Shown here: positions 14,488-32,659 of the stretch, one piece after another
Numbering within the stretch: the first letter of the stretch is position 1
Layout: every line of letters begins with the position of its first letter
Source: Candidatus Methylomirabilota bacterium
Lineage (GTDB): Bacteria > Methylomirabilota > Methylomirabilia > Rokubacteriales > CSP1-6
NCBI GenBank assembly: GCA_035649755.1
Contig: DASRIY010000474.1
Location: 1-50,530, forward strand
DNA: 50,530 bases
Direction of reading: 5' to 3'
Notes under the pieces: model-generated
The model's input: the letters and a program-made list of their open reading frames with translations, nothing else
Database searches by the model: none
Told to the model about the DNA's origin: nothing
Position numbers and translations under genes: made by a program

Positions 14488-15675
14488 GTGAGATCTCGCG
14501 CGCGCGCGGTGCTGGCTACCGCCTGCAGCATCCACTTCGTCCACGACGGGTTCTCCGACATCCTCTACGTCCTGCTGCCGCTGTGGGCGACCGACTTCGG
14601 CCTGACGTTCGCCCAGGTCGGGATGATCCGCACCGCCTACAGCGGCGGGATGGCCGCGTTCCAGATTCCGGCGGGGCTCCTCGCCGAGCGATGGGGCGAG
14701 CGGCGACTGCTGGCGGCAGGCACCGCGATCACCGCGCTTGGATTCATCGCGGTCGGAGCGGTGGGCGGATTCCTCGCGCTCCTGGGTGTGCTGCTTGTGG
14801 CCGGGATCGGCTCCGGCGTCCAGCACCCGCTCTCATCGTCGCTCGTCTCCAAGGCCTACGAGACAGGCCCGCGACGCACCGCGCTCGGGACCTACAACTT
14901 CTCCGGCGACATCGGCAAGGTCGTGGTGCCGGCGGCAGTCGCGCTGGCCGCCACCGTCGTCGGCTGGCGCACGGCGTCGATGGCGTACGGAGTGGTCGGG
15001 GTGCTCGCCGCGCTCGGCATTCTCGGCGTGCTCGCCCGTCTCACGCCCGACCTGCCGGACGTCGGCGACCGGCCGAGGCAGGCGGAGACGGCAATGTCCG
15101 GCTGGGGCATCCGGGACGCGCGCGGCTTCAGCGCCCTGACCGCCATCGGCATGATCGACAACGCGGCCCGCACGGGGTTTCTCACCTTCCTGCCCTTCGC
15201 GCTGATCGCCAAGGGCTCCACGGTGGCCGGCGTCGGCACGGCGCTGGCGCTCGTCTTCGCGGGCGGTGCGGTCGGCAAGTTCGTCTGCGGTGTCGTCGCC
15301 GAGCGGCTCGGCGTCATCCGGACGGTGGTGCTCACGGAGGCCGCGACCACGCTCTGCATCCTCTCCATCGTCGCGGCGCCGCTCCCCGTCGCTCTCGCGA
15401 TCCTGCCGCTGATGGGGGTGGCGCTGAACGGAACGTCCTCGGTGCTCTACGGGACGGTCGCCGACCTCGTCACCGCCGAGCGCCGCTCCCGCGCCTACGG
15501 CCTCTACTACACGACCACGATCGCGGCGTCGGCGCTCTCGCCCTCGCTGTATGGCCTCGTCAGTGACGCCGCCGGAGTCAGTACGACTCTCGTCATCGTC
15601 GCGGTCATGGTCCTCGTCACGATTCCGCTGTGCCTGGCGCTGCGGGCGTCGGTCGCCGAGCCCGCGGTGTCGTGA
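14488..15675 (+). CDS. MFS transporter (Fsr-like)
   Basis: About 12 hydrophobic segments, GLLAERWGERRLL motif A and GSGVQHP. Start moved to GTG 14488 to avoid overlap with pduO. Confidence 0.85.
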   Translation: MRSRARAVLATACSIHFVHDGFSDILYVLLPLWATDFGLTFAQVGMIRTAYSGGMAAFQIPAGLLAERWGERRLLAAGTAITALGFIAVGAVGGFLALLGVLLVAGIGSGVQHPLSSSLVSKAYETGPRRTALGTYNFSGDIGKVVVPAAVALAATVVGWRTASMAYGVVGVLAALGILGVLARLTPDLPDVGDRPRQAETAMSGWGIRDARGFSALTAIGMIDNAARTGFLTFLPFALIAKGSTVAGVGTALALVFAGGAVGKFVCGVVAERLGVIRTVVLTEAATTLCILSIVAAPLPVALAILPLMGVALNGTSSVLYGTVADLVTAERRSRAYGLYYTTTIAASALSPSLYGLVSDAAGVSTTLVIVAVMVLVTIPLCLALRASVAEPAVS

Positions 15676-27249: not shown

Positions 27250-29340
27250 CTAGCCGGACGTCGCCAGAGCAAGCTTGCCCCGCCAGCGGGCGAGCAGCAG
27301 CGCGCGCAGCGCGCGGTGCGCGGGATCGGTCAGCTCCGGATCGCGCGACACCATCCCGCCGGCCTCGCGCCGCGCGTCCTCCAGGAGCGCCGTGTCGCGC
27401 AGCAGCTCGGCGGCGCGGAACTCGGGGATCCCGGACTGGCGCGTGCCGAAGAACTCACCCGGACCGCGCAGCTCCAGATCGGCCTCGGCGATCCGGAAGC
27501 CGTCGTTGGTCGCCGTCATCGCGTCGATCCGCCGCTGGGCGTCCTCGCCGAGGTTTCCGCCGGTGAGCAAGATACAGTACGACTTCCACTCGCCGCGGCC
27601 GACGCGCCCGCGGAGCTGATGGAGCTGCGAGAGACCGAAGCGCTCGGCGTGCTCGATCAGCATGACGGACGCGTTGGGCACGTCGATGCCGACCTCGATG
27701 ACCGTCGTGGAGACGAGCACGTGGATCTCCCCCGCCTTGAAGCGGCGCATGATCGCGTCCTTCTCCTCGAAGCCGAGGCGCCCGTGCAGGAGTCCGATCG
27801 TGAGCTCGGGAAAGATCTCGTCGGCCAGGCGCCGGGCCATGTCGGTGGCGGCCTTCAGGTCGAGCTTCTCCGACTCCTCGACCAGCGGATAGACGACGTA
27901 GACCTGGCGCCCGGCGCCCACCTGCTCCTTGAGGAACTTGTAGATCTCCCGCCGCTTCGACTCGGTGCGCGCCACCGTGACGACGGGGCGGCGGCCGGGC
28001 GGCAGCTCGTCGAGCACCGAGACGTCGAGGTCACCATAGATGGTCAGCGCGAGCGTGCGCGGGATCGGCGTCGCCGTCATCACCAGGAGATCGGGGTGCT
28101 CGCCCTTGCTCCTGAGCCGCGCGCGCTGCTCGACGCCGAACCGGTGCTGCTCGTCGACCACCACGAGCCCGAGCCGTCGGAACTCGACGCCCTCCTGGAC
28201 CAGCGCGTGGGTGCCCACGACGCACGCGGTGCCGCCTGCCGCCAGCCCGGCCCGGCGGGCGGCCCGCTCCTTCGGCTTGAGCGAGGAGGTCAGGAGCGTC
28301 AGCTCCACGCCGAGCGGCTCCAGGAGCTGGCGAAACGTCATGAAGTGCTGCTCCGCCAGGATCTCCGTCGGCGCCATCACCGCCGCCTGATAGCCGGACT
28401 CGATCGCCGTCAGGACTCCGAGCGCCGCCACGACCGTCTTGCCCGATCCGACATCGCCCTGGAGGAGCCGGTGCATCGGATGCGGCGCCGCCATGTCGCG
28501 CCGGAGCTCTTCCCACACGCGCTCCTGGGCGCCCGTCAGCTTGAAGGGCAGGCTTGCCCGGAGCCGCGCGACGAGATCGCCGCGCGGGTTCATCGAGAGC
28601 CCGCGCTCGCGGGCCACGCGCGAGCGCAGAATGGCCAGGCCGAGCTGCAGCAAGAGCCCCTCGTCGAATGTGAGGCGCCGGCGCGCCGCCGCCAGCGCTC
28701 CGTCCGCCTCCGGGAAGTGCGCGTCGCGCACGGCCTGGGCCAGCCCCACCAGGCCGCGCCGCGCGCGCACGGTCTCGGGGAGCACCTCCTTTACCTCGGC
28801 GCTGAACGTGTCGACGAGCCGCCACATGAGTGAGCGGAGTGCGCGCTGGGGCAGTCCCTCGGTGAGCGAGTAGACCGGCACGAGTCGGCCGGTGTGCAGC
28901 CGCTCGTCCTCGCCGTTCTCGACGATCTCGTAGTCCGGCTGCTGGATGACCATCGCGCCCTTGTAGCGTCCGACGCGCCCGTGCAGGACCAGCCGCTGCC
29001 CGCGCTTGAGCACGCGCGACAGGTAGCGCCAGCCGAACCAGCTGGCGGTGGCGTAGCCGCTGGCGTCGCGCAGCATGACGGTGAACGGAATGCGGAAGCG
29101 GCCGGGCGGCGGCGGGCTCACCCCGACGATGACACCCGAGCACGTCGCGGCTTGCCCCGGCACGAGCGCGTTGAAGGGAGTCAGCCGTGTCCGGTCCTCG
29201 TGGCGCAGGGGAACGAAGAAGAGCGCGTCCTCGACGGTGCGTAGCCCCTTCTTCTCGAGCTGGCGCGCGCGCTGCGGCCCGACGCCCTTGACGAACTGCA
29301 GCGCCATCTGGAGGCCGCCCGGCGTGTCGGTTTGCTTCAA
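27250..29340 (-). CDS. recG: ATP-dependent DNA helicase RecG
   Basis: [26 protein letters not shown] and [12 protein letters not shown]. Start TTG 29340 or ATG 29307. Confidence 0.95.
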
Positions 29341-29405
29341 GGACGCGGGCGTGCTATAGATTCCAGTCGGTCCAGTCCACGAAAACCGGAGTCCAGGGAG
29401 CGTTC

Positions 29406-29597
29406 ATGGCGCAGCGCTGCGATGTTTGCGGGAAGGGTCCCTCTGTCGGTCACAAGATCAGCCACGCGCACAAGCTGACGAAGCGGCGCTGGCTTCCCAA
29501 CCTCGTCTCGATGCGGGCGTTGGTGAGCGGCAAAGCCCGGCGCGTGCGCGTGTGCACCCGTTGCCTCAAGGCCGGTAAGGTCACGAAGGTCATTTAA
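29406..29597 (+). CDS. rpmB: 50S ribosomal protein L28 (Zn-ribbon form)
   Basis: CDVCGK...[14 protein letters not shown]...VCTRCLK; SD GGGAG. Confidence 0.95.
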
Positions 29598-29607
29598 GCA
29601 CATGCAC

Positions 29608-29635
29608 AAACGGGAGGGGGCCGAGCCCCCTCCCG
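29608..29635 (-). terminator. Intrinsic terminator hairpin
   Basis: Perfect 11-bp stem CGGGAGGGGGC-cga-GCCCCCTCCCG with a short U tail (TTTG) on the minus strand, between convergent genes. Confidence 0.6.
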
Positions 29636-29680
29636 AAAGTCTGGTGGGAGGCTGCCACCCCCCACCGTAGAACAGCAGCA

Positions 29681-29713
29681 CTACTTCTTCTTCTTCTTGG
29701 CCTTCTTCTTCAT
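29681..29713 (-). CDS. Poly-lysine micro-ORF 2: MKKKAKKKKK (10 aa)
   Basis: ATG AAG AAG AAG GCC AAG AAG AAG AAG AAG TAG, preceded by SD AGGGGGTGA. Confidence 0.55.
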   Translation of the reverse strand: MKKKAKKKKK

Positions 29714-29758
29714 CGAGCGTCTCACCCCCTTCCCTGGAGAATCTCGCGACCGCTCACG

Positions 29759-29797
29759 CTACTTGCCCTTCTTCTTCTTCGTCGCCTTCTTCTTCAC
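29759..29797 (-). CDS. Poly-lysine micro-ORF 1: MKKKATKKKKGK (12 aa)
   Basis: GTG AAG AAG AAG GCG ACG AAG AAG AAG AAG GGC AAG TAG; start lies 7 nt after the AGGAGG core of a full SD AAGGAGGTGAT. Confidence 0.6.
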   Translation of the reverse strand: MKKKATKKKKGK

Positions 29798-29821
29798 CAA
29801 ATCACCTCCTTCCGCGATCGC

Positions 29822-30871
29822 TCAGTAACCCATCGCTTCGCGCCGCACGTGCTCGGCCTGCTCGGGCCCGCGGCGCTCGTAGTGGATCAAGTCGGCGTAG
29901 AGCTGGGGCAGGCATACCACCTTGAGCCCGCCCTTCTCGTACGCGCCGTGCAGCACGCCCGGGTCGTACGGCTGGAGAATGTGGAGCGTGCCGTCGGCTT
30001 CGGTCGCCGGGCGCAGACCGAGGGCCTGCGCGACCGGCGCGGGATCGCCCTCGAGATAGCAGTGGACGGTCGGCAGCCGGAGGCTCGGGACGAGGAGCGC
30101 CGCGCCCGCGTTGAGCGTGAACGCGTAGGAGCGGCCCGCGGCGAGCGCGGCGCGGGCGATCTCCCCCATGAACTTCCGCGTCACGCGCTCGGGCGCCAGG
30201 TACGACGTGATCCCGTTCGCGCGATACGTATACGACTCGCACCACGCCTCGAGCAAGTCGGCCGGCTTCGACAGGTGGATGCGCTGGTCCGCGTCGCGCT
30301 CGGCCCACGCCAGCTCCTCGAGCCGCTTCACGACGTTGTGCGAGTGCCCGAGGCTCACGCCCGCGGCCTTCCCGAGCTCCTCGAGGCGCCACGTGCGAAC
30401 CGGCTCGATCAGGAGCACCCGGACGACACGGGTCGCGCGGGGCGCGAACAGTGAGCGCAGAGGCCGCGTCGAAGGCCGGACGTTGCGCTTGCCCTCTTTC
30501 TCGATCAGGACGTTCCCGAAGGCCAGATAGCAGTTGCCGGACAGGTCGACGTATCCGAGGCCGTTGTTCTTGAGGATCCGGGCACTCTGCGGGCCGATGT
30601 AGGCGGCCGCCGCGACTGGATGCGCCCCGGGGAGCTCTCTACGAATCTCGTTGAGGCGGGTCACGGAGGCTCGAATCTGCCGGGGCTGGCCGAGTGAGCT
30701 GACCTCAACCACGATCGTATGCTCCTGGCCGCCGAGCTGGAAGCGCGAGACCAAGTCCGCGGTCTGACTGCCGATTCTGGAGTCGGCGCTTTCCTGCCAG
30801 CCCGTTGCCGCAGGGAGAAGCTCCTGCAGCCGCTGCCCAACCTGCTTCCGAACCTCCCCGGATTTCAACAT
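29822..30871 (-). CDS. AbiEi-like (type IV TA antitoxin family) winged-HTH regulator, orphan
   Basis: N-terminal degenerate PD-(D/E)xK-like segment (ADL...VEVSSLGQPR), wHTH (LEELGKAAGVSLGHSHNVVKRL) and C-terminal PQLYADL...RG.EQAE, as recalled for AbiEi_2/DUF2186. Confidence 0.7.
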   Translation of the reverse strand: MLKSGEVRKQVGQRLQELLPAATGWQESADSRIGSQTADLVSRFQLGGQEHTIVVEVSSLGQPRQIRASVTRLNEIRRELPGAHPVAAAAYIGPQSARILKNNGLGYVDLSGNCYLAFGNVLIEKEGKRNVRPSTRPLRSLFAPRATRVVRVLLIEPVRTWRLEELGKAAGVSLGHSHNVVKRLEELAWAERDADQRIHLSKPADLLEAWCESYTYRANGITSYLAPERVTRKFMGEIARAALAAGRSYAFTLNAGAALLVPSLRLPTVHCYLEGDPAPVAQALGLRPATEADGTLHILQPYDPGVLHGAYEKGGLKVVCLPQLYADLIHYERRGPEQAEHVRREAMGY

Positions 30872-30888
30872 GTTTCTCTGACTCCGCT

Positions 30889-30910
30889 TGTTTCAGCATC
30901 TGCTGAAACA
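30889..30910. promoter_or_regulatory. Perfect inverted repeat, probable operator
   Basis: TGTTTCAGCA-TC-TGCTGAAACA (10-bp arms), overlapping the -10 box. Confidence 0.65.
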
Positions 30911-30937
30911 TTACAGACGACTGAAAGAGCCTGTCAA
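30908..30937 (-). promoter_or_regulatory. Sigma-70 promoter of the AbiEi-like gene
   Basis: TTGACA (30937-30932) - 18 nt - TAATGT (30913-30908). Confidence 0.6.
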
Positions 30938-30967
30938 GCCAAAACTTACGAGCAATCGGTAGAAGAG

Positions 30968-32659
30968 TTATCCGGTGATCGAGTCACGAGCCAGAGCCTC
31001 GAGGCTACAGCGCAGGCGAACATGCCCGTCCAGTCGTCGGGCGTAATCCATCTCGCTGGGGCCGCCCTTCGCCCGCATCAGCGCGACGAGCGCGCGGCGC
31101 TGCGCCGACGACCAGGCGCCGAGATCGGGGATGAGCGCCGCGACGAGCGACATCCGGGCGAACGCGCGCCGCTCGGCGGTGGGCCATCCGGTTCTGCGCG
31201 CGGCGCCGAGGATGCCACCGACGCGCTCGGTCGATTCGCGCGTCGCCAGGCTCCGGTCGCCGCCGAACTCGCGCGCGATCATTCGCGCGACGAGCGCCGA
31301 GACGTCGGTCGCGCGCAGGCGCCTCTCGGGAGCCGCCAGGCCGCCCGGCAGCGTCAGGTAGACCTCGTCGGCGGCCAGGCGCTTGAGCACCGGGATCGGC
31401 GAGCGATAGCTCGGGTCGGCGGCGATCTTCGCGCGCTCCTCGGCCAGCACGCGGACGACGCCCGGATCGCGCGGACGGAATCCGAGGCGGTGATAGAAGT
31501 AGAACGAGCCCGAGCGCAGCGCCTCGGTGCTCTCGTGGCCGAGCTGGTAGCGGTCGATGACGACGGTCTTCATGTTGAAGATCCGGCGATACGCCCGCAA
31601 AAGCTGCATCGCGAGGTACGCCGATTCGCCCTGGCGAAACGACGCGAAGATGTTCACCGCGAAGTCGAGCGTGCCGAACAATTCCCACCCGCCTCCGTAG
31701 CTGACGGGCACGCCATTCTTGAGAACGAGAAAGCCGTAATAGCCCTCGAGCGGCAGGCGAAAGTCCGGCGCGATCCCGATGAAGACCAGCGTGAGCCCAC
31801 GGCCGGCGTCGACGAGCAGCACGTCGTCGGGATTCGGATGGGAGAACGCGTGGAGCTCGCGCTGGCGCGTCGCCATCGCCACGCGGGCCGCCTCGATCAG
31901 CGCCTCGGCCCGATCGCGGTGCGCGCGGACGAGCGGCGGCGGCCGCCGGAGCGCTTCGACGAGGTCCCCAGCGCTCCGATCCAGGCCCGCCGGATGAAAA
32001 AACACCTGCCGGCACGGAAGTCGCGCGAGCGTCCGCGACGCGCCGGGGCCGCGCGGGCGCCAGAGAATCGGCAGCGCGACGCTCTCGAACAGCCAGTCGC
32101 GCGTCTCCTCGGGCAGCCCGGTGCGGGCGAACAGCTCGAGCACCACCGCGAGATCGCTCAGCCGGCGGCCGCCCTTCGCCACGCGAAGCCACTGCCGCCA
32201 GCCCATGCCGCCCTCGCTGAACGCGTCGCCTTCCGCCGCGGTCGCCAGCAGCGACAAGGTCTCGTCGAGACGATCGGCGTCGTCGAAGCGGCTCCAGGCG
32301 ATCTCGGTGTCGGGCGGAAAGCGCGCGGCGAGCCATCGGGCCATCGGGTAGCCGAACGGATAGTCGAGCGTGGCGCCGCCGATCCCGGAATCGTGGAGCC
32401 GTCGCGCGGACGGCCCGAGCCGCGCCACCCGGCTCGCGAAGCCCTCGAGTGCCTTGTCGACGAGCTCGAGGACGCGCGCGTCATCCGGGTATGCCTGCAG
32501 AAAGCAGAGCGCCTCGTGGAATCGGCCGAGCGTGCCGGGGTGGCGGATCGCGCAGCGCTCGAGGCCTTCGAGCAGCTGGCACTTCTGCTTTTGATCTTCG
32601 GGCGAGTAGCGGGCGGCGGCCGCCGCCAGGGCCTCGACGAGGCGCCGGCCCCGGCTCAT
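30968..32659 (-). CDS. Hypothetical protein, 563 aa, with possible GNAT-like domain
   Basis: Long ORF with protein-like composition, abutting the upstream zincin gene; contains FASFRQGE and FYHRLGF. Confidence 0.75.
   Translation of the reverse strand: MSRGRRLVEALAAAAARYSPEDQKQKCQLLEGLERCAIRHPGTLGRFHEALCFLQAYPDDARVLELVDKALEGFASRVARLGPSARRLHDSGIGGATLDYPFGYPMARWLAARFPPDTEIAWSRFDDADRLDETLSLLATAAEGDAFSEGGMGWRQWLRVAKGGRRLSDLAVVLELFARTGLPEETRDWLFESVALPILWRPRGPGASRTLARLPCRQVFFHPAGLDRSAGDLVEALRRPPPLVRAHRDRAEALIEAARVAMATRQRELHAFSHPNPDDVLLVDAGRGLTLVFIGIAPDFRLPLEGYYGFLVLKNGVPVSYGGGWELFGTLDFAVNIFASFRQGESAYLAMQLLRAYRRIFNMKTVVIDRYQLGHESTEALRSGSFYFYHRLGFRPRDPGVVRVLAEERAKIAADPSYRSPIPVLKRLAADEVYLTLPGGLAAPERRLRATDVSALVARMIAREFGGDRSLATRESTERVGGILGAARRTGWPTAERRAFARMSLVAALIPDLGAWSSAQRRALVALMRAKGGPSEMDYARRLDGHVRLRCSLEALARDSITG

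Follow-up and report, generated by a model that had tools for sequence, protein, structure and literature searches.

The ORF349 locus

The window analyzed here is a stretch of 50,530 nucleotides (nt) from a Candidatus Methylomirabilota bacterium of the order Rokubacteriales (GenBank assembly GCA_035649755.1, contig DASRIY010000474.1, positions 1 to 50,530); the assembly amounts to 4.55 Mb, is 86% complete, and has 69% G+C. Its minus strand carries a compact unit centered on ORF349, an open reading frame (ORF) for a protein related to AbiEi antitoxins. In the direction of reading, the unit consists of a promoter, a palindrome, a GGAG ribosome site, ORF349, two lysine micro-ORFs, and two hairpins, beyond which lies a convergent rpmB gene. 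A first-pass annotation, made from the letters alone, had described a promoter, a palindrome, an AbiEi-like ORF, two Lys micro-ORFs, and hairpins; all of them are found between 29600 and 30960 of the minus strand where it had placed them, and all are conserved in orthologous loci to an extent that chance cannot explain. The features of the unit are as follows.

30941-30949, minus strand: A/T-rich GTAAGTTTT element just upstream of the -35 box, a possible UP element
30932-30937, minus strand: -35 box, TTGACA
30922-30926, minus strand: extra TTTCA half-site in the promoter spacer
30908-30913, minus strand: -10 box, TAATGT (family TAnnGT)
30889-30910, no strand assigned: predicted operator, a perfect 10-2-10 palindrome overlapping the end of the -10 box and the predicted +1
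30891-30908, no strand assigned: operator core, TTTCAGC-N4-GCTGAAA
30882-30885, minus strand: GGAG ribosome site ahead of the ORF349 start
29822-30871, minus strand: ORF349, three-domain AbiEi_2-type protein of 349 amino acids (aa), defined by Pfam, the AlphaFold2 model, and orthologues
30482-30871, minus strand: N-terminal PD-(D/E)xK-like domain, aa 1-130, with a restriction-endonuclease-like fold in the model
30233-30457, minus strand: winged helix-turn-helix (wHTH), aa 139-213, from model superposition
29825-30190, minus strand: C-terminal nucleotidyltransferase (NTase)-like domain (AbiEi_2 region), aa 228-349, from model superposition
29759-29797, minus strand: micro-ORF 1, GTG start, MKKKATKKKKGK, preceded by GGAAGGAGGTGA
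29681-29713, minus strand: micro-ORF 2, ATG start, MKKKAKKKKK, preceded by GGGAAGGGGGTGA
29604-29666, minus strand: two G+C-rich hairpins (29643-29666 and 29611-29635) followed by GUUUGUG, a probable terminator shared with rpmB

Domain architecture of ORF349

ORF349 matches the Pfam family AbiEi_2 (PF09952) over aa 200-346 with 28.3 bits against a cut-off of 21, as do 59 of 63 relatives, which bears out the AbiEi-like identity first proposed for it. It has no match in NCBIfam and none in PADLOC at E ≤ 0.001, where the best value is 0.005 to PDC-M05A. A profile of the ORF349 family finds only weak wHTH matches among PDB sequences. The AlphaFold2 model, built on 63 relatives (predicted local distance difference test 96; predicted template modeling score 0.82), consists of three domains.

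The N-terminal domain is similar to EndoMS (5gke) and NucS (2vld), with a Foldseek E value of 1e-4 and a probability of 1.0, and superposes on 1y88 (Z 10.5) and 2vld (Z 9.9). Its catalytic triad is incomplete: D39 and E56 are kept and position 58 is Ser, so that the motif reads E56-V-S58, as noted earlier, where most relatives in the alignment carry D39...E56-x-K58.

The middle domain superposes on wHTH domains of the MarR, IclR, CRP, and Fur types (Z 8.3-10.2); Pfam MarR and IclR matches are each found in 10 of the 63 relatives. The C-terminal domain shows VIA-align matches to ANT(2'') (Z 10.3), MenT1 (Z 10.1), LnuA (Z 9.8), and AbiEi (6y8q; Z 8.8). The AbiEi_2 C domain thus fits the MenT1 toxin as well as it fits AbiEi, and it has a conserved Tyr in the strand where the DxD motif would stand. 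A predicted complex of two ORF349 copies scored 0.00 (mark 0.42) and is uninformative on dimerization.

Toxin-linked relatives

The ORF349 family comprises 3293 clusters (50% identity) at E ≤ 0.001 and 349 at E ≤ 1e-30. Most relatives have about 350 aa and are 30-40% identical to ORF349 over the full length. Among 80 metagenome loci of distant relatives, gathered with a 9-sequence alignment, 52 encode an NTase partner, a homologous ORF of about 285 aa that starts 10-16 nt downstream. These 52 partners form one BLAST cluster and share the motifs GGW...HxGSxDxD and KDxYD; at E ≤ 0.1, 16 of 35 match the Pfam family AbiEii and 14 of 35 match NTP_transf_8. The partner profile has no match among PDB sequences at E ≤ 1, and PADLOC gives only 4 single-member AbiEii matches for the partners. 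Twelve of the 80 loci are of the window type: 11 of them have Lys micro-ORFs, and for the twelfth (L135) no more than 48 nt are available downstream. In 9 loci, the downstream sequence is too short to judge the partner, and 7 have no intact NTase, one of them with a shifted AbiEii-like ORF. Distant paralogues from the same phylum (≤38% identity) have an NTase directly downstream at 9 of 10 loci, in one case in two fragments, and lack it at the remaining locus. Since the NTase follows in 52 of the 80 metagenome loci and at 9 of the 10 paralogous ones, the AbiEi_2-type family is normally the upstream half of an AbiE-like pair, in agreement with the toxin partner that the first-pass annotation had named for AbiEi proteins. 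The family probably corresponds to the pair that Dy et al. 2014 and later papers call "COG4861-COG4849".

The D...ExK triad is intact in the NucS-like domain of most toxin-linked relatives (L076-L155), with K at 58 of 66 and E at 61 of 65, so these antitoxins may be active nucleases.

The NTase partner is truncated, shifted, or missing in several relatives (L079, L084, L093, L096, L104, L110, L121, L127, and L228), so toxin decay recurs in the family outside the clade of the window.

A toxin-less clade in Rokubacteriales

An orthologue of ORF349 with 66-96% identity is found in 74 species-level Rokubacteria/Methylomirabilota genomes; across Rokubacteriales, the orthologues have about 349 aa and are 52-97% identical. 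In a survey of 151 genomes of the phylum, orthologues are present in 91/93, 11/11, and 1/1 genomes of the three families of the order (103 of the 105 sampled). Nearly all were found at E ≤ 1e-119, two are cut by contig ends, and the gene is nearly always single-copy; the genome of the window likewise holds one member of the family. Identity declines with decreasing kinship, and outside Rokubacteriales only paralogues with ≤38% identity are found. The gene order relA ... ORF349, rpmB, recG is fixed, with a convergent rpmB at 73 of 74 loci and recG next to it at 72 of 74. In the window, these two genes are located as follows.

29406-29597, convergent to the ORF349 unit: rpmB
27250-29340, minus strand: recG

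One locus from a record titled Candidatus Binatia (L010) is of the Rokubacteriales type, with 83% identity and full synteny; its label probably misfits.

The absence of a toxin, noticed in the first pass, extends beyond the locus. No NTase follows ORF349, and a hidden Markov model of the partner, run over six-frame ORFs of the 86%-complete genome, finds nothing at E ≤ 10. (Profile searches of the same genome with PF09952 and with PF08843 returned 0 matches; as the former missed ORF349 itself, neither was used.) In the orthologous loci, the place of the toxin is taken by the micro-ORFs, the hairpins, and the convergent rpmB.

A phylogeny of 107 rows was built with FastTree, a quick method. Besides ORF349 of the window, it includes one in four of 72 orthologues, a deeper peptide-linked clade with 12 rows, 10 paralogues, and 65 further metagenome relatives with a length of 280 aa or more; 54 orthologues and shorter fragments were left out. 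All 30 peptide-linked rows form one clade with a Shimodaira-Hasegawa-like support of 100 and a stem of 0.69 (arbitrary root, no bootstraps), and one change suffices to explain the distribution of toxin and peptides. On this tree, the toxin loss is ancient and shared by one clade and not a local accident, as a simple loss in this genome would be.

The decay of the catalytic Lys tracks the loss of the toxin in the alignment: K58 is found in 58 of 66 toxin-linked relatives, compared with 1 of 74 orthologues and none of the 12 members of the deeper clade, where position 56 is also changed, to Gly. In the toxin-less clade, G293 is replaced by D or E. The other family-invariant residues are retained there, namely D109, G112, and N113 of the hairpin, those of the wHTH, and those of the C domain except G293.

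Lysine micro-ORFs

Both micro-ORFs of the window sit behind GGAGG-type Shine-Dalgarno sequences. At least one Lys micro-ORF is found at all 73 orthologous loci with downstream sequence (two at 62 loci, one at 11), always a few tens of nt past the ORF349 stop. The encoded peptides have 10-13 residues, 70-80% of them Lys, and the consensus MAKKKA[A/T]KKKKK; the commonest are MAKKKAAKKKKK, MKKKAKKKKK, and MAKKKKAAKKKKK. In the deeper clade, a longer first ORF, MPKRKKAVKKGGKKKATKKGKRK, is followed by MAKKKKAAKKKKK. Every one of 273 (AAR)≥3 tracts downstream of orthologues lies in frame in a short ORF, and all 135 micro-ORFs of the 73 loci run from a start to a stop codon behind a Shine-Dalgarno-like pentamer no more than 20 nt away. 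Copies differ in length by whole codons and otherwise, among ORFs preselected by matching peptide, vary only in third codon positions and in TAA versus TAG. No Lys micro-ORF is found downstream at any of the 68 metagenome loci that are not of the Rokubacteriales type.

Micro-ORF 1 was considered as a remnant of the 5' end of a toxin gene and rejected, as it has no similarity to the N terminus of the partner (MPRT..DY..). When the final 180 nt of 74 orthologous coding sequences are reduced to a consensus, no TTGACA-like motif that could be an internal promoter appears in it, and third-position conservation there (0.71-0.75) is not above that of the rest of the coding sequence. The hairpins that follow the micro-ORFs fold with -52.5 kcal/mol (z -4.7; 0 of 200 shuffles as stable), and the 90 nt past the last micro-ORF have a mean fold of -53 kcal/mol in 74 loci; the U tracts are short.

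Stand-alone copy of the micro-gene

In the genome of the window, Lys ORFs of this kind are found at three places only: the ORF349 locus, a stand-alone gene, and an upstream ORF (uORF) of an ABC-F gene. The latter two are as follows.

Contig C2, about 2037-2075 (locus L177), plus strand: stand-alone micro-gene MAKKKATKKKKK
Contig C177, about 15105-15161 (loci L202/L203), minus strand: polybasic uORF MAKGTGMRKEKKKPKKKK, ending 6 nt before a gene for an ABC-F-type ATPase

The stand-alone copy is located beside nrdR-glyA in at least 14 genomes of the family of the window, between a B12/radical S-adenosylmethionine (SAM) protein gene and a convergent nrdR-glyA-rpiB cluster; in the sister family, Pfam searches of its neighbors gave only the B12/radical-SAM protein. 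All 21 loci examined share the same arrangement: a TTGACA box, a 17-nt spacer, and TAGCAT or TAGAGT, then some 45 nt of 5' untranslated region (UTR), GGGAGGTGA, and the ORF, behind which the terminator is also conserved. None of the 21 has the TTTCAGC palindrome or a neighboring regulator. Because it is strongly promoted, the stand-alone copy argues that the peptide may be a normal cellular product and not a toxin.

Across the phylum, the micro-ORF DNA pattern occurs in 71/93, 10/11, and 0/1 genomes of the three families of the order, and its backwards control gives 0 matches. Outside the order, it is found in 4 genomes only; all have two mismatches and no start codon, and these are probably not micro-ORFs.

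In one genus, the second micro-ORF locus converges on what is left of an rpmB gene or on a copy of rpmB with a frameshift (L191, 2825-2890; L193, 2207-2390). Because it faces such a remnant or pseudogene, this locus suggests that the micro-ORF-plus-rpmB segment was duplicated in that genus.

Promoter and putative operator

Upstream sequence is available for 73 orthologous loci, to which the following counts refer. The -35 box is TTGACA in 70 and TTGACN in all 73, the -10 box is TAnnGT in 72, and the spacer has 18 nt in all. In the window, the -10 box is weak, matching TATAAT at 3 of 6 positions. GTAAGTTTT is found at 31 loci, with close variants at most others, and its AAGTTT core recurs at the same place.

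The inverted repeat over the promoter, reported in the first pass, is strictly conserved. The core TTTCAGC-N4-GCTGAAA is present at all 73 loci, and only its central 4 nt vary, also in the deeper peptide-linked clade. At 71 loci, the palindrome begins 37 nt ahead of the ATG. Every locus has an additional TTTCA, the sequence with which the palindrome arm also begins, between the -35 and -10 boxes, and the half-sites within the operator are spaced by 11 bp. A genome-wide scan of the 4.55-Mb assembly, which had been proposed as a check, finds no second copy of the full palindrome even when up to 3 mismatches are allowed. The core has one exact site, one with one mismatch, inside a long ORF, and six with two mismatches, the same number as in the backwards control (6). 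These features fit a dedicated protein operator better than an RNA hairpin or the site of a regulon, because the sequence and not just the pairing is invariant, the third half-site is unpaired, the spacing is 11 bp, and the site is unique.

The protein that binds this putative operator may well be ORF349 itself, because autoregulation is documented for AbiEi: that of Streptococcus agalactiae negatively autoregulates its own promoter (PMC3985639).

The box of a global regulator, such as a LexA-type box, was considered and rejected, as the site is unique in the genome.

Genomic neighborhood

Upstream of ORF349, the minus strand continues with one uncharacterized ORF, followed by genes for a Zincin_1 protein and RelA/SpoT.

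30968-32659, minus strand: 563-aa ORF upstream of ORF349

This ORF has no match in Pfam, NCBIfam, or PADLOC; by eye, its C-terminal part resembles an acetyltransferase motif. It is found upstream of ORF349 at only 27 of 74 orthologous loci and, with no family match, was rejected as a member of the unit.

A probable domesticated autorepressor with polylysine micro-genes

The unit is probably a domesticated autorepressor, co-transcribed with real polylysine micro-genes, and not an active toxin-antitoxin (TA) or defense module. The regulator half of an old AbiE-like pair, made up of an AbiEi_2-type protein and a DUF1814/AbiEii-like NTase, would have been fixed as a core gene in the ancestor of Rokubacteriales. 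The toxin gene would have been lost, with the catalytic Lys of the PD-(D/E)xK domain decaying along with it, and the winged helix, the NTase-like C domain, and the promoter/operator would have been retained. ORF349 would bind TTTCAGC-N4-GCTGAAA and the third TTTCA half-site and, since these sites overlap the -10 box and the start site of its own promoter, repress its own transcript. That transcript would carry one or two efficiently translated micro-genes for polylysine peptides of 10-13 residues and end at the hairpins shared with rpmB. The peptides would be gene products acting in trans, given that the same gene stands alone with a strong promoter at a second conserved locus, and the unit would add to the supply of a polycationic micro-peptide in a repressible, signal-dependent way. 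The favored guess for the role of the peptide, at less than even odds, is that it binds ribosomes, RNA, or DNA as a polycation. Of the two readings offered by the first-pass annotation, that of a domesticated regulator of the peptides holds up as the best one, with the qualification that the link between regulator and peptides is read from the operon layout only.

Metatranscriptome contigs cover ORF349 and the micro-ORFs in 4 soil or rhizosphere runs from 3 studies, and one 286-nt contig from an RNA library (29688-29973) extends over both micro-ORFs and into ORF349 for 150 nt. Because all four runs consist of contigs, their depth is no basis for ranking parts of the locus. Summed contig depth is higher over the micro-ORFs but is confounded by copies from other species and loci, and many contigs have loose ends. 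The region 30889-31050 is covered by no RNA contig, which is not evidence of a start site.

Several observations weigh against this reading. Promoter and terminator both escape a consensus scanner at the locus, so the case for them rests on conservation; the -10 box is weak and the spacer has 18 nt. The RNA-library contigs indicate that the sequences are present but not their strand, ends, or level, nor whether they form a single transcript, and may include DNA. Repression by ORF349 is inferred from the behavior of the family and the uniqueness of the site. The codon evidence for the micro-ORFs is partly circular, as the ORFs were chosen by peptide pattern. The stand-alone copy has no operator, so the regulator would not be required to make the peptide, and the adjacency of the two could be historical, the regulator having landed beside a resident micro-gene. 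Finally, the role of the peptide is a guess, a 12-residue Lys run being without a comparable fold.

Alternative explanations

The micro-ORFs might instead act in cis, sensing the supply of Lys-tRNA or polybasic stalling and setting read-through past the hairpins, antisense to rpmB, into recG, with the peptides as by-products. This is improbable, although the anatomy is that of a leader attenuator (a Shine-Dalgarno sequence, an ORF dominated by one codon family, a stop, and two strong hairpins) and recG, co-oriented and 270 nt beyond the hairpins at 72 of 74 loci, could be reached by read-through. Lys-rich uORFs may be sensors in this lineage, as a related uORF, MAKGxGMxKEKKKPKKKK, lies 2-6 nt before the ABC-F ATPase gene in 5 genomes. 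The micro-ORFs of the window, however, are at the 3' end of an operon and not in a leader, the next gene is the convergent rpmB, and a search for an alternative antiterminator pairing gave none, each hairpin folding independently of the other. The stand-alone copies are followed by a terminator and, on the opposite strand, by nrdR-glyA-rpiB, which leaves nothing to attenuate; a pure leader function is thus disfavored because there is no co-oriented gene behind them.

In the ABC-F case, a uORF of the form MAKG..M.KEKKKPKKK precedes the orthologous ABC-F gene by 2-6 nt in 4 genomes besides that of the window. It may be a stalling sensor for the translation factor.

Slightly less probable still is that the palindrome is not the operator of ORF349 and serves as the site of another regulator or as an RNA hairpin of the 5' UTR. 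Palindromes can form RNA hairpins, and this one lies between relA/spoT (stringent response) and recG (repair), either of which may be under other control. Against this stand the single exact site in the genome, which leaves no regulon, and the invariance of the arms in sequence, not just in pairing, with the unpaired third TTTCA equally conserved. With the predicted start site inside the palindrome, the left arm would be missing from the RNA. No Rfam match is found in 29300-31100 at E ≤ 1.

A strongly polycationic peptide could plausibly be harmful to cells, and the micro-ORFs occupy the exact position of the toxin at 73 of 73 loci, behind a promoter that appears to be under tight, operator-based control. 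The new TA-like or defense module envisaged in the first pass might therefore persist with a polylysine peptide as growth inhibitor in place of the NTase and ORF349 as its repressor. That proposal is improbable and not supported by the comparison: the unit belongs to the core genome as a single copy, keeps its synteny with rpmB and recG, and is vertically inherited across the order, unlike the patchy canonical pairs; PADLOC gives no match; and the same peptide gene stands unguarded, with a near-consensus promoter and no operator or adjoining regulator, at 21 of 21 loci.

Very unlikely is an RNA element, in which a purine-rich (AAG)n tract would bind an RNA-binding protein or act as a sponge with incidental reading frames: such tracts are rare in a 69% G+C genome (125 runs of at least three AAR) and A-R-N repeats are a known motif for the distal face of Hfq, but every one of the 273 tracts is in frame in a short ORF, a Shine-Dalgarno sequence accompanies each of the 135 ORFs, copy length varies by whole codons, and Rfam gives no match.

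Comparison with known systems

The true relatives by sequence are the uncharacterized AbiEi_2-type proteins paired with an AbiEii-like NTase, which are 30-50% identical to ORF349 over the full length and have the same three domains; the clade of the window branches among them. They differ from it in having an NTase 10-16 nt downstream, in keeping D39...E56-x-K58 and G293, and in lacking Lys micro-ORFs (0 of 68).

AbiEi/AbiEii of S. agalactiae (COG5340 and DUF1814) shares with the unit a wHTH and a C-terminal domain; the C domain of ORF349 superposes on that of AbiEi (6y8q) with a Z of 8.8 and a root mean square deviation of 2.8 over 103 residues. In both systems, the operon opens with the regulator gene, whose promoter is no further than about 60 bp from the start codon (PMC3985639 for the streptococcal one). 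Unlike AbiE of S. agalactiae, the unit of the window has no toxin gene and an extra N-terminal PD-(D/E)xK-like domain, belongs to the Pfam family AbiEi_2 and not AbiEi_1/3/4, and is a syntenic core gene and not mobile or patchy. It has one 7-4-7 palindrome and a half-site.

In MenA/MenT of Mycobacterium tuberculosis, an NTase toxin from the same superfamily is likewise combined with a wHTH antitoxin, and the C domain of ORF349 matches MenT1 with a Z of 10.1. MenT toxins modify tRNA and their antitoxins act by complex formation or induced phosphorylation (PMC11375011); these mechanisms are inapplicable here, because there is no toxin.

The micro-ORF peptides can be compared with two further groups. 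Like amino acid attenuator leader peptides, they are encoded by short ORFs with a Shine-Dalgarno sequence, one main amino acid, and hairpins after them; unlike those, they either close an operon or stand by themselves, and no gene in the same orientation follows directly. The small basic ribosomal proteins bTHX, bS22, and bL37 have 24-33 residues and specific, nonrepetitive sequences and are encoded by tiny genes that annotation misses. The micro-ORF peptides are likewise short and highly basic, and one of their loci adjoins rpmB, but they have only 10-13 residues, of which 70-80% are Lys.

Implications

Orphan and domesticated antitoxins are known in general. Literature searches, with supplements outside their scope, found no report of a toxin-less AbiEi_2-type core gene and none of conserved polylysine micro-genes or matching peptide strings. 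The micro-gene family may be new in its own right; its members are too short for gene callers and are spread across an abundant uncultured order of soil bacteria. Tentatively, and against the odds at present, they might form an unrecognized class, an encoded polycation present in 2-3 copies per genome and acting on ribosomes, RNA, DNA, or polyphosphate, with one locus constitutive and the other under an ex-antitoxin that senses, through its NTase-like C domain, an old signal once shared with the toxin. The locus would then be a stress-tunable polycation supply made from the regulatory half of a TA system. As a clean pair, operator and regulator lend themselves to testing in a laboratory host.

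For the family as a whole, the locus would represent a fixed example of antitoxin exaptation, in which the nuclease Lys and G293 travel with the toxin and the features for DNA binding or sensing survive without it.

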